Below, one piece after another: positions 50,089-61,888 of a DNA stretch of 64,000 nt. The stretch spans positions 55,527 through 119,526 of the forward strand of contig JBHLLU010000005.1 in assembly GCA_048938895.1 (NCBI GenBank), given 5' to 3'. Position 1 is the first letter of the stretch. Every line of letters begins with the position of its first letter. The notes under the pieces were generated by a model. It saw nothing but the letters and a program-made list of their open reading frames with translations, ran no database searches and had not been told where the DNA came from. The stretch comes from Promethearchaeota archaeon (GTDB lineage: Archaea > Asgardarchaeota > Lokiarchaeia > Sigyniarchaeales > SOKP01). The translations under genes were made by a program, and so were the position numbers.

Positions 50089-50181
50089 GGCCCTTGACGG
50101 TTGGAGTGGTCTCTGACGCTGGGCTTCAAACCCAGTTATCCTGCGGAGGGATAGGGGTTCGATTCCCCTCGAGGGCCGCCA
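50089..50181 (+). tRNA. selC: tRNA-Sec (anticodon UCA), 9/4 fold, CCA encoded
   Basis: 9-bp acceptor GGCCCTTGA/TCGAGGGCC, 7-bp D stem with TGGT loop, anticodon TCA at 50126-50128, long variable arm, 4-bp T stem, G73-CCA. Confidence 0.96.
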
Positions 50182-50314: not shown

Positions 50315-51679
50315 GTGGTTGATTTTAATAAGATTAGTGAATTTTTTAAAAATACTCCTATACCTCAGAATATGTTAGATAGAGGGCAAATTGTTCTTAA
50401 AAATTTCATGAAACCAATAAAAAATTTATTCGAACAAAAGTGCGTTCCACAGAATGCATGGAAAGATGAACAAATTGAATTCCTGTTAGAAACACTTTCA
50501 AATATGGATACTGACAAAGATAGTGACGCGGCTAGAGTAGGAGAAAGAGAAGCTAGAATCGCATCGAAACTACATTTGAAAACATCAGCAGGATTCTGCC
50601 ACGGAGTTGGACGGAGTGGATTTCTTACTGCCCCTCAACCGAAAGCTCCGGGAGCCTCAATTATGTATGAGCTTTCTAACTATTTAGCAAGAGACATTTT
50701 AAGAAATTTTGGTTTACCAAATATTACAGAAGCAATAGTGGTTCCATTATGCACAGGGATGTCTCTATCTTTAGTACTAGGGGCTTTAAGACCAGAGGAG
50801 GAAAATAATTCAAATATTAAAAGAACTGTTTTAGTTCCTCAAATTGACCATAAATCACTGTTAAAATCGATAGAATTTATGGGATTAAATCCTAAAATTA
50901 TAAACGGCAGAATATTTGGGGATGCTGTAAGGATCCCTATTGAGGAAATAGAAACTAATATCGATAACAATTGTTATGCAATTATTTCAGTTACAAGTTT
51001 TTTTCCACCTCGAGAACCTGATAACGTTAAAGAAATAAGTAAATTAGCTAAAAAAAATAAGCTCATTCATATTATCATCAATGCATATGGTGTTCAAAGC
51101 CCAGAATGGATGAATTTAATACGTTCAGCAATAGATGCGGGGAGAGTTGATGCAATCATTCAATCAACTGATAAAAATTTTCTTACGCCTGTAGGAGGTG
51201 CTCTAATCGCTTCACCAATTAAAGAAAATATAAAAAAAATTAGTCAAACATATGCTGGACGAGCGTCTGCTACTCCTGTTGTGAACTTTTTAATCTCTAT
51301 GCTCTCTTTAGGGATTAAGGGTTATCAGAAACTAATTGAAGAACAAAAAGAAAATCGAAAATTACTAGAACAAAAACTATCGATTGTAGCAAAAAATATA
51401 GATGAACAAATATTAGAAATTTTTAATCCTGTAGCGGTGGCATTATCTCTAAAAAATCTAAAAGAAGAACATTTATATGCCATAGGAGGTGCATTATATA
51501 ATTTAAGAGTTACTGGTCCAAGAGTATATAATCCTAAAGAAAGTGAATTTGGTACATGCTGTAAAAATTATCCCATTCCTTACATTGTTATGAATGCTGC
51601 AATAGGGTCAAAAAAGGAAGATATTGTCTCTGCTGTTGAAAGATTTGAAAAAGCATATAATCAAATAACTCAAAAGTAG
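50315..51679 (+). CDS. spcS: O-phosphoseryl-tRNA(Sec) selenium transferase (SepSecS)
   Basis: GEREAR, HGVGRSG, QPKAPG, DHKS, QSTDKNF PLP lysine, YAGRAS. Confidence 0.95.
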   Translation: MVDFNKISEFFKNTPIPQNMLDRGQIVLKNFMKPIKNLFEQKCVPQNAWKDEQIEFLLETLSNMDTDKDSDAARVGEREARIASKLHLKTSAGFCHGVGRSGFLTAPQPKAPGASIMYELSNYLARDILRNFGLPNITEAIVVPLCTGMSLSLVLGALRPEEENNSNIKRTVLVPQIDHKSLLKSIEFMGLNPKIINGRIFGDAVRIPIEEIETNIDNNCYAIISVTSFFPPREPDNVKEISKLAKKNKLIHIIINAYGVQSPEWMNLIRSAIDAGRVDAIIQSTDKNFLTPVGGALIASPIKENIKKISQTYAGRASATPVVNFLISMLSLGIKGYQKLIEEQKENRKLLEQKLSIVAKNIDEQILEIFNPVAVALSLKNLKEEHLYAIGGALYNLRVTGPRVYNPKESEFGTCCKNYPIPYIVMNAAIGSKKEDIVSAVERFEKAYNQITQK

Positions 51680-51800: not shown

Positions 51801-52481
51801 ATGGAAAACCGACTTTTATCACAATTTAACGGAGTTATTACTTCACAGTGGCTCTCTAAGTATATAGAGGAACCTTATGGTTCTTTAATCCCAAGAGAGT
51901 TGTTTGAAATCGCGTATCACACCTGCAATTCCGTGGCTATGAGGAATATTTATATAAAATTAGCATCTAGTGAAGAACAAGCAGGTTCTAAAGCTGTTTT
52001 TTACTCAAATACAAAAAAATTTACCTCTATAGAAGCCTTAGAAAAGGGAGTAAGAATTACAAAATACTTTAATCAAGGGGAAACCGGGGATAAAGTTGAA
52101 ACTGAAATTCATCCAAGTCTTAAAAAAAGAAAAGAGGTTTATAATTCGAAAGATCAAGACTTAAAGACCCAATTATTAAAAAGTATTTTAGTTGAGCGAA
52201 AACTTGATGAATGTGCTAATTTAGTAATGTTAAAGGGTAATAATCGAAAAGTATATTTTGCCATTGGGGATGCTAGAGAATCTGCTGCTGTGATCCCAAT
52301 CTTTATGGAAGCGGAAGGTGCTAGTTTGGTTCAATTGGCACTGAATAAATGGATGGAAACAGCCCAAAGATTGAATCACGAACAAAATTTCCCGGAGAAT
52401 CTAATCCCTGGTATTATTAAAAACCTTACTCAAATAAAAAGATGGCTTCTTGACCTAATTAGTGCTAATTTAGATAAGTAA
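51801..52481 (+). CDS. Hypothetical soluble protein
   Basis: 226-aa ORF with host-like codon usage; no motif recognised. Confidence 0.7.
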   Translation: MENRLLSQFNGVITSQWLSKYIEEPYGSLIPRELFEIAYHTCNSVAMRNIYIKLASSEEQAGSKAVFYSNTKKFTSIEALEKGVRITKYFNQGETGDKVETEIHPSLKKRKEVYNSKDQDLKTQLLKSILVERKLDECANLVMLKGNNRKVYFAIGDARESAAVIPIFMEAEGASLVQLALNKWMETAQRLNHEQNFPENLIPGIIKNLTQIKRWLLDLISANLDK

Positions 52482-52614
52482 ACTACTTTTTCAAATTATA
52501 ATTGATGCATCATATGCAAATATGAATGGAGAGAATATTCTTAGATATATAAAAAACCGTGAAATTGCGGTTTCACGAAGTTTTTGAATCTTGAAAATAA
52601 AAAGAATATAAATA

Positions 52615-52822
52615 TGGGCCATCGGGGATTTGTTCTGATGAGGGGAATCCCAATCATCAATTGAACCCCGGATTTCCTAGTCAAAAGGGATAATCCCTTT
52701 TTATCTCAGGTTTTTACTATCTCGGACAGTTCTTTTTATTGTATGTCCGATGATCATTTATAAGACCTGCGCTTGTTGACCAAGCTTTTAAAACCTTGTT
52801 AACCAGGCTAAGCAAATGGCCC
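52615..52822 (-). tRNA. tRNA-Ile (UAU) with four BHB-type introns
   Basis: Removing 52775-52799, 52712-52757, 52674-52704 and 52630-52660 gives a 75-nt cloverleaf GGGCCAT TT GCTT AGCCTGGTTA AAGC G CAGGT CTTATAA ACCTG AGATC CGGGG TTCAAAT CCCCG ATGGCCC A with all four stems fully paired. Confidence 0.88.
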
Positions 52823-53062
52823 TAATTATTACAAACACTAATTTACATTTTCTTATATCTTTTAATATTAATCTACTATTTATTTTAGTTAATTGTATAG
52901 CTATTAATCTTGTATGTGTTTATATTCTAATTAAATAAGAAAAAAGATAAATATTTTTTTATTGGTTATTTTTTTATTGATGTAATCTGTTATATTTATA
53001 ATTAAAGTAACAAAAAGAGACAATAGAAAATATTAGTTAAATTTTGGAAAAGCTGATTATCC

Positions 53063-53476
53063 ATGGCTGAAATGTTAACCGATCTTTTACAAAATATCTA
53101 TAAGCGTATAGCCCAGTTAGGCCAAAGCATCCAACAGTTGAATGAAAGCTTAAATTCACTCAACAAAAACATTGAAGATAAGATATCTAATTTAACACAG
53201 AAATTAGAGGAATTTTCTAATGAAATTAATGTTACCCAGACTAAGCATATAGATGCTGTGAAGGAAATTGGTGGGGAAACTACAAAAGAATTAAAGATAA
53301 TACAAGAAGGATTAGGATTAGAAGCACTCAAAACTCTTATTAAGAAACTAGAAGAATTTTCTAATCTTTCAGAAGGGATACTTAATCAAGACACCGTGAA
53401 TTTATTATTATCAGAAGCTATCGATTCCGTTAAAATTTTAAAAGAATCAGTCAATAAGGAAGAGGTCATAGAATAA
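53063..53476 (+). CDS. All-helical coiled-coil protein
   Basis: Heptad pattern throughout; no Pro, Cys or Trp. Confidence 0.75.
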   Translation: MAEMLTDLLQNIYKRIAQLGQSIQQLNESLNSLNKNIEDKISNLTQKLEEFSNEINVTQTKHIDAVKEIGGETTKELKIIQEGLGLEALKTLIKKLEEFSNLSEGILNQDTVNLLLSEAIDSVKILKESVNKEEVIE

Positions 53477-61789: not shown

Positions 61790-61888
61790 CGCAGACGGAG
61801 GGATTCGAACCCTCGAGTGCATTCACACACTGGCTTTCTGGGAATGTCCGCTCCAAGCCAGCGCCGTACCAGGCTAGGCAACATCTGC
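61790..61888 (-). tRNA. tRNA-Ser (GGA) with a 15-nt canonical 37/38 intron (61836-61850)
   Basis: Acceptor GCAGATG/CGTCTGC, G73, long variable arm, TTCGAAT loop; BHB central helix TTGG/CCAG. Confidence 0.92.

Follow-up and report, generated by a model that had tools for sequence, protein, structure and literature searches.

A heavily interrupted tRNA-Ile(UAU) gene and the probable replacement of agmatidine-dependent AUA decoding in an Asgard archaeal family

How AUA can be read without AUG being misread is one of the classic questions about the genetic code, and three solutions are known. Here we describe a heavily interrupted transfer RNA (tRNA) gene, tRNA-Ile(UAU), located in a stretch of 64,000 nucleotides (nt) from a Promethearchaeota archaeon of the Asgard order Sigyniarchaeales (assembly GCA_048938895.1, contig JBHLLU010000005.1, positions 55,527 to 119,526 of the forward strand; this whole stretch is hereafter called the window). 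That a UAU tRNA has taken the place of agmatidine appears well supported by the evidence from this genome and its relatives, and it is very probable that an expressed and spliced tRNA-Ile(UAU) decodes the abundant AUA codons of this organism after the loss of TiaS.

The closest described systems are archaeal. Among 167 genomes, those of Nanoarchaeum equitans and Korarchaeum cryptofilum were reported to be the only two with a tRNA-Ile(UAU) and without TiaS, and the Korarchaeum gene contains an intron (PMC6000648). The archaeal tRNA-Ile(UAU) has been named tRNA-Ile3 (PMC8450103). Three ARMAN lineages (ARMAN-2, ARMAN-4 and ARMAN-5) have also been described as TiaS-less carriers of this tRNA, for which the authors drew a parallel with eukaryotes; in ARMAN-2, the intron is 25 nt long and lies at 37/38, and the precursor was cut in vitro (PMC3239211). 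In yeast, the tRNA-Ile(UAU) intron is reported to allow Pus1 to make pseudouridines 34 and 36 and to keep the Elp complex off U34 (PMC6582322). With regard to the Asgard archaea, a 2026 preprint (10.64898/2026.10.13.758758) deals with heavily interrupted tRNA genes; its main text contains none of the terms UAU, TAT, TiaS, agmatidine, isoleucine or Ile. A full-text literature search, which covered few subscription journals, returned no report linking TiaS or agmatidine with Asgard lineages; database annotations may list the gene. TiaS-less decoding with a UAU tRNA is already known in other archaea and, as far as these searches reach, is noted here for the first time in an Asgard archaeon. The initial annotation of the locus had spoken of eukaryote-style AUA decoding. 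The UAU anticodon agrees with that description, but the precedents in Nanoarchaeum, Korarchaeum and ARMAN mean that the trait is not specifically eukaryotic.

The gene lies on the minus strand and spans 208 nt, from G1 at window position 52822 to A73 at 52615, with five exons separated by four introns (Table 1). The stretch that first drew attention, 52756-52769, takes in the loop CUUAUAA, with the 5' anticodon-stem strand before it and the first two bases of intron 2 after it. When joined in silico, the five exons form a full cloverleaf of 75 nt that ARAGORN calls tRNA-Ile(tat), with the features of a class I tRNA: an acceptor of 7 base pairs (bp), a 4-bp D stem, an anticodon stem of 5 bp whose 7-nt loop includes U33, a short variable loop, and a T stem of 5 bp closed by a T-loop of 7 nt. 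The acceptor starting with GGGCC and the A73 listed in the initial annotation are both present, while the short variable loop that it also listed is a property of the mature RNA and not of the gene, where this loop is split by a 31-nt intron. Out of ten tRNAs of the same genome, the closest to the spliced product is tRNA-Ile(GAU), with 56 of 75 positions identical, the other tRNAs sharing 43 to 51. Along with A73 and the UAU anticodon, this likeness would fit an isoleucine identity. The 208-nt precursor is predicted to fold with -69.8 kcal/mol (z = -5.14), a value equalled by none of 200 shuffled sequences, and its centroid structure contains the acceptor, anticodon and T stems, with hairpins between them.

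Bulge-helix-bulge introns are defined by a central helix of 4 bp and two bulges of 3 nt on opposite strands, and the cuts are made two bases into each bulge. Every equivalent cut of each intron was scored against this rule, and all four introns have exactly one register with four of four central pairs, that is, with a bulge-helix-bulge core. In the T-loop intron, both the outer and the inner helix are present as well, and the remaining three introns are relaxed on one side. In the case of the anticodon intron, 38/39 is the sole cut of the seven in the loop that gives a complete central helix (UUAU with GUAA); it leaves the loop CUUAUAA and bears out the UAU anticodon that had been read through this register. 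The canonical cut at 37/38 would produce an identical mature loop with merely one of the four central pairs. In the 38/39 register, U33-U36 pair with GUAA at the 3' end of intron 2, so that the anticodon itself is base-paired in the predicted precursor.

The gene is conserved in the genus. A BLAST search with the 208-nt gene gave matches in 22 of the 24 other genomes of the genus (all but G015 and G019) and in none of 16 genomes from three other families of the order. Twenty genus loci were retrieved and compared for their exon and intron content. The anticodon loop CTTATAA is identical in all of them, and all have introns at 21/22 and at 38/39. The remaining introns have a patchy distribution: nine loci have the variable-loop intron and 11 lack it, the T-loop intron occurs in seven, and an additional D-loop intron is found in six, which raises the number of intron sites in the genus to up to five. 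The loci without a variable-loop intron show a loop of 5 nt, and those without a T-loop intron show the mature T-loop of 7 nt. The splice products at these two sites are visible as DNA in intron-free relatives and are not merely predicted. The exons are near-invariant across the 20 loci while the intron sequences vary, and the inner hairpin of the anticodon intron carries paired, compensatory substitutions among the orthologues. On these sequence comparisons, the tRNA-Ile(UAU) gene can be regarded as confirmed, and its UAU anticodon as correctly observed.

A covariance model (R1) was built from seven of the 20 genus loci, picked so that the patchy introns were treated as insertions, and was run over 151 genomes of the phylum; the anticodon columns were read in the 29 best loci and in 40 further regions. 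R1 matched in 24 of 25 genomes of the family (f1), with no match in G079, and led to 27 further UAU genes: 22 in f1, distributed over five genera, one in family f2 and four in f5, where all four genomes have it. The loop CTTATAA is present in 22 of the 23 further loci from f1 and f2, and the remaining f2 locus splices to the same loop. All of the 45 UAU genes (20 and 27 loci, minus two genomes counted twice) have an intron in the anticodon loop, at 38/39 in f1 and at 37/38 in f2 and f5, there with four of four central pairs. The D-loop intron is absent from eight of the 27 further genes, which have a D-loop of 10 nt. Furthermore, between genera and families the anticodon stem varies in a compensatory manner.

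TiaS was searched for in four ways in the genome, which is 4.6 Mb in size and 98.74% complete. The Pfam domains TiaS_FLD and TiaS_TCKD, each matched in four of four archaeal control genomes, had no match in this genome, and neither did a four-domain TiaS protein from another genome of the phylum at E<=10. Additionally, a local tblastn search with two Asgard TiaS proteins gave a best E of 0.13 (over 58 residues), compared with 1e-131 or better at four control loci. The genome check for tiaS that the initial annotation had proposed found no such gene; it had also proposed a comparison across Asgard classes, and the comparison made here, between families of the phylum, reveals a family-wise pattern. 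TiaS_FLD is found in 111 of 201 genomes of the phylum, and the full four-domain protein was seen in two examples. Families with the domain include f9 (40 of 43 genomes), f7 (17 of 21) and f24 (all ten), and it is missing from f1 (0/40), f2 (0/3), f5 (0/4), f14 (0/19), f15 (0/3), f18 (0/5) and f23 (0/3). The three families with UAU genes are all TiaS-negative, and no UAU tRNA was found among the 23 R1 matches from 11 TiaS-positive families. In these TiaS-positive families the best R1 match is often tRNA-Ile(GAU), which fits the isoleucine identity of the UAU tRNA. TiaS is retained by most other families of the phylum, and its loss is therefore more likely to represent a switch within particular Asgard lineages than an ancestral trait of the whole phylum. 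As a separate observation, two loci of f15, L076 (G051) and L101 (G062), contain a conserved tRNA-like gene, about 160 nt long and heavily interrupted, with an anticodon that could not be parsed.

In a non-exhaustive screen of 19,053 distinct candidate CAU anticodon arms, both spliced and unspliced, only two CAU tRNAs in a tRNA-like context were found, one of the initiator type and one of the elongator type (Table 1). The elongator-type tRNA has no paralogue in the genome, and a CAU tRNA of family f7 has no relative there; both searches returned only chance matches of 15-17 nt. Taken together with the UAU anticodon and the searches for TiaS, these two CAU tRNAs leave the direct decoding of AUA by UAU in place of agmatidine, as initially proposed, as the best reading. 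The CAU tRNA of the TiaS-positive f7, seen at the five loci L080-L084 (genomes G043, G178, G107, G164 and G181), has a D-loop intron and a canonical anticodon intron of 24 nt, scores 45-54 bits with the UAU-derived model and may in that family serve as the tRNA-Ile2 on which TiaS acts.

The demand for AUA decoding is high. ATA had been described as frequent in the window, and this holds for 40 window open reading frames (ORFs; 33.9 per 1000 codons) as well as for 1780 long ORFs of the genome (33.6 per 1000), where it is the ninth most used codon and accounts for one third of the isoleucine codons; ATG amounts to 21.3 per 1000 codons in the same genome set. With regard to the processing machinery, the genome has two EndA-family genes (101.5 and 68.1 bits), which would fit a two-subunit splicing endonuclease. 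The two genes lie at G000:C83:69740-69964 and G000:C123:60606-60854. Broad specificity is reported for endonucleases of the (alpha-beta)2 type (PMC5829648). The genome also encodes Elp3 (682 bits) and one TruA/Pus1-family gene only (G000:C65:86799-87104), and its tRNA-Ile(GAU) gene has no intron.

In the pathway that we propose, the tRNA-Ile(UAU) gene would be transcribed, its four bulge-helix-bulge introns would be cut out by the archaeal splicing endonuclease and the exons joined by a ligase, in four excisions and ligations, to give the 75-nt class I tRNA, which would then be charged by IleRS. With TiaS lost, no agmatidine would be formed on a CAU tRNA, and AUA would be read by U34-A pairing. 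AUG would be spared either because U34 is masked or modified at the stage when intron and anticodon are paired, which seems the likelier option, or because tRNA-Met competes or the ribosome discriminates. Masking or modification at the precursor stage is attractive given an intron that is never lost and that pairs with the anticodon, and given the presence of Elp3.

Several points weigh against this reading. The splice junctions and the expression of tRNA-Ile(UAU) are predictions. The genome has a contamination of 7.49%; despite this, the conserved synteny of the orthologous loci indicates that the contig belongs to the organism. R1 found no UAU tRNA in the TiaS-negative families f14, f15, f18 and f23 (for instance in G082, G099, G062, G080 and G083), where its matches were tRNAs for Arg, Pro, Lys, Thr and Leu, tRNA-Ile(GAU), CAU tRNAs and a few unparsed ones; either the genus-derived model failed in these families or another route exists there. 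Moreover, the list of tRNAs of the genome is incomplete. ARAGORN with introns gives 32 genes, several with wrong anticodons, Rfam gives at least 34 matches, with 150 of 369 candidates scored, several tRNAs were found by hand only, and scans for T-arm and acceptor as well as nhmmer profiles also yielded an incomplete list. Lastly, the CAU screen missed the UAU gene when it was rerun for TAT, because the introns sit within a few bases of the anticodon arm, and a third, heavily interrupted CAU gene could escape it in the same manner.

Such a gene is at the centre of one alternative, in which AUA is read by a hidden tRNA-Ile2(CAU), modified by an enzyme with no relation to TiaS, and the UAU gene is redundant or minor. 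The incomplete tRNA census speaks for it, as do the four TiaS-negative families in which R1 sees no UAU gene. Yet the CAU tRNAs recovered in the arm screen are those of initiator and elongator type, the searches for a paralogue or an f7-like relative found neither, and the exons of the UAU gene are constrained across the whole family, so that we consider this alternative very unlikely. Even less credible is the notion that another splice register gives a UAA loop, and with it a tRNA-Leu, or that the gene is a decaying pseudogene. Four cuts, from 32/33 to 35/36, would indeed yield UAA, three of them with one and the same 7-nt loop, and when introns were removed by brute force ARAGORN accepted UAA 197 times and UAU 128 times. 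However, the enumeration was unscored and non-discriminating (dozens of anticodons were accepted among 358,152 intron sets) and was dropped for that reason, and the four cuts have between zero and three of the four central pairs, against four of four at 38/39. A tRNA-Leu has a long extra arm, and the 5-nt variable loop of the mature tRNA, as read at the 11 loci without this intron, is too short for it, which excludes this identity. As for decay, it is difficult to reconcile with exons that stay invariant while introns change and with an intron hairpin that is maintained by compensatory changes.

If tRNA-Ile(UAU) does read AUA, as we favour, two analogies may account for the sparing of AUG. One of them comes from Mycoplasma mobile, where tRNA-Ile(UAU) is reported to have an unmodified U34 and to be AUA-specific on its own ribosome only (PMC3575796). 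By this analogy, U34 would be left unmodified, misreading of AUG would be limited by the ribosome, the tRNA body and competition by tRNA-Met, and the intron would have no role in decoding. No extra candidate for a modification enzyme was found in the genome, which agrees with such a solution; but an exposed U34 would have to escape Elp3, and the retention of the anticodon intron in every UAU gene would be left without an explanation. This scenario is possible, with the balance of our judgement against it. The other analogy, which is a reasonable idea and would refine the proposed pathway rather than compete with it, comes from eukaryotes: the anticodon intron may be kept for the modification of U34 and U36, for instance by a pseudouridine synthase, on the paired precursor, making the tRNA AUA-specific. 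The product of Elp3 at U34 would favour the reading of G, and with Elp3 present U34 may need protection. In favour of this route, U33-U36 pair with the 3' end of the intron in the sole complete register, the anticodon-loop intron is universal among the UAU genes while the D-loop intron is missing from eight of 27 and the others are patchy, and the genome's own tRNA-Ile(GAU) is intron-free. In yeast, the intron is reported to be needed for pseudouridines 34 and 36 and to block ncm5U (PMC6582322), and an intron also occurs in the UAU tRNAs of Korarchaeum (PMC6000648) and ARMAN-2 (PMC3239211). Conversely, a pairing between positions 32-36 and the intron is a general property of bulge-helix-bulge introns at the anticodon loop, these lineages are described as intron-rich anyway (10.64898/2026.10.13.758758), the single TruA/Pus1-family gene has no dedicated paralogue, and in yeast the loss of the intron is reported to cause no detectable misreading of AUG (PMC6582322). 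We therefore regard an intron-dependent, eukaryote-like route as tentative and somewhat doubtful. A broader proposal, in which U34/U36 modification of the precursor strictly requires the intron of the Asgard tRNA-Ile(UAU) as a handle, and eukaryotic AUA reading was inherited from, or is deeply parallel within, the Asgard archaea, with TiaS lost on the way, appears unlikely at present.

The gene is not detected by standard tRNA finders. ARAGORN reported a single gene in the window, a tRNA-Sec, and Rfam at its gathering scores had two matches in the window, the same tRNA-Sec and a tRNA at 61790-61888, with none at tRNA-Ile(UAU); a permissive Rfam search of 52560-52880 gave no match at E<=10. Both tools miss the gene because four introns interrupt its cloverleaf. 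Standard finders may consequently overlook an essential decoder in these genomes, and the inference of codon reading from annotation can mislead.

Other tRNA genes of the genome present similar difficulties. Genes for Thr, Asn, Arg, Leu and Gln tRNAs, which were read by eye, have introns in the T-loop, the D-loop or both and are not listed by the intron mode of ARAGORN, and Rfam has matches at three of these five sites, all of them sub-threshold. At a further set of four genes, read by hand as probable Arg(UCU), Ala(UGC), Ala(CGC) and CAU elongator tRNAs, the intron mode of ARAGORN reports wrong anticodons ('Stop tta', 'Lys ttt' and an oddly placed 'Ala cgc'). The third of these was tried as a second UAU candidate and rejected: an intron before position 32 leads to a CGC anticodon, and the gene has a G3-U70 pair, which we take to be typical of tRNA-Ala.

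In the neighbourhood of tRNA-Ile(UAU), the adjacent tRNA-Sec and SepSecS genes indicate that the archaeal/eukaryotic pathway of selenocysteine is encoded beside it. SepSecS, at 1 kb from the tRNA-Ile gene, has relatives with 63-79% identity that are mostly labelled Promethearchaeota or Promethearchaeia, with a few other Asgard archaea and one bacterial label, in agreement with the Asgard lineage suggested at the outset. In the Rfam alignment, the second interrupted tRNA of the window shows insertions of 18 nt in the anticodon loop and 13 nt in the variable region. A hairpin, CGTGAAA...TTTCACG, lies at about 52557-52580, some 35-60 nt to the 3' side of tRNA-Ile, and almost all orthologous loci have it at the corresponding position; a terminator that also serves the convergent ORF 51801-52481 is one possible identity, a small RNA another. 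On the other side, an AT-rich block of about 50 nt (window about 52925-52995) is situated between tRNA-Ile and the divergent ORF 53063-53476, is near letter-for-letter identical in the six orthologous loci that were compared upstream (L014 and L016-L020) and is probably a shared promoter region.

Table 1. Features of the tRNA-Ile(UAU) gene, its neighbours in the window and other tRNA genes of the genome. Plain coordinates refer to the window; coordinates starting with G000 are given as genome, contig and positions.
Feature	Coordinates	Strand	Remarks
Whole tRNA-Ile(UAU) gene	52615..52822	-	Covariance model R1 score 159.1 bits; no encoded CCA
Exon 1: 5' strand of the acceptor, positions 8-9, 5' strand of the D stem, D-loop through A21	52800..52822	-	Genus conservation
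Intron 1, 25 nt, D-loop, A21/position 22	52775..52799	-	Central helix 4/4, 3-nt bulges, inner 4-bp helix
Exon 2: 3' strand of the D stem, G26, 5' strand of the anticodon stem, loop CUUAUAA	52758..52774	-	
Anticodon loop CUUAUAA	52764..52758	-	
Anticodon U34 A35 U36	52762..52760	-	
Intron 2, 46 nt, at 38/39	52712..52757	-	Only register with 4/4; has inner hairpin
Exon 3: 3' anticodon-stem strand and first two variable-loop bases	52705..52711	-	Cut after precursor base 118
Intron 3, 31 nt, variable loop at 45/46	52674..52704	-	Central helix 4/4
Exon 4: final three bases of the variable loop, 5' strand of the T stem, T-loop through A58	52661..52673	-	
Intron 4, 31 nt, T-loop at 58/59	52630..52660	-	Strict motif: central helix 4/4, inner helix 5/5
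Exon 5: final two bases of the T-loop, 3' strands of the T stem and the acceptor, A73	52615..52629	-	
tRNA-Sec gene	50089-50181	+	Rfam 61.1 bits
SepSecS gene	50315-51679	+	Pfam 393 bits; directly downstream of tRNA-Sec
Second interrupted tRNA	61790-61888	-	Rfam 41.5 bits; Ser(GGA) by ARAGORN with introns
Initiator-type CAU tRNA	G000:C39:9458-9558		A1-U72 pair and an anticodon stem with three G-C pairs, taken here as the initiator criteria
Elongator-type CAU tRNA (probable)	G000:C107:13674-13781		Read by hand
tRNA-Thr(GGU)	G000:C107:13554-13660		Read by eye
tRNA-Asn(GUU)	G000:C39:34044-34160		Read by eye
tRNA-Arg(GCG)	G000:C90:27155-27290		Read by eye
tRNA-Leu(CAA)	G000:C39:23722-23870		Read by eye
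tRNA-Gln(UUG)	G000:C51:51790-51930		Read by eye
Probable tRNA-Arg(UCU)	G000:C67:2751-2855		Read by hand
Probable tRNA-Ala(UGC)	G000:C39:41754-41856		Read by hand
Probable tRNA-Ala(CGC)	G000:C138:7049-7150		Read by hand

An entire Asgard family, along with genomes of two further families, thus appears to have abandoned agmatidine for a UAU tRNA, in a class with cultured members. The same task, the reading of AUA but not AUG, is carried out by tRNA-Ile2(CAU) and TiaS in other families of the phylum; the system described here differs from that solution in having U instead of C at position 34 and in an enzyme that was not found in the genome. With Nanoarchaeum, Korarchaeum and ARMAN it shares the UAU anticodon and the failure to find TiaS, and these archaea are reported to be without a tRNA-Ile2(CAU) as well (PMC6000648, PMC3239211). 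Unlike them, the host is an Asgard archaeon with a 4.6-Mb genome, neither reduced nor deep-branching, its gene has four introns, with the anticodon intron at 38/39, the loss of TiaS spans whole families, and AUA is among the ten most used codons. The gene resembles those of the preprint on interrupted Asgard tRNA genes, which are reported to have multiple bulge-helix-bulge introns, many of them in the D-arm, and to be missed by standard annotators (10.64898/2026.10.13.758758).

Outside the archaea, Mycoplasma mobile offers a similar case of direct AUA decoding by a tRNA-Ile2(UAU) after the loss of the C34-modifying enzyme; there the system is bacterial and intron-less, U34 was shown to be unmodified, and adaptations of IleRS and the ribosome were demonstrated (PMC3575796). 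The eukaryotic tRNA-Ile(UAU) is comparable in its anticodon, in an always-present intron that pairs with the anticodon and in the lack of a route for C34 modification (PMC6582322). It differs in that the Asgard intron is of the bulge-helix-bulge type and lies at 38/39, and in that the three further introns have no eukaryotic counterpart. Furthermore, unlike eukaryotes with their Pus1 pseudouridines, this genome has one TruA-family gene, and most Asgard families keep TiaS. Notwithstanding these differences, a UAU tRNA with an anticodon-loop intron that is never lost is the arrangement that eukaryotes also use.

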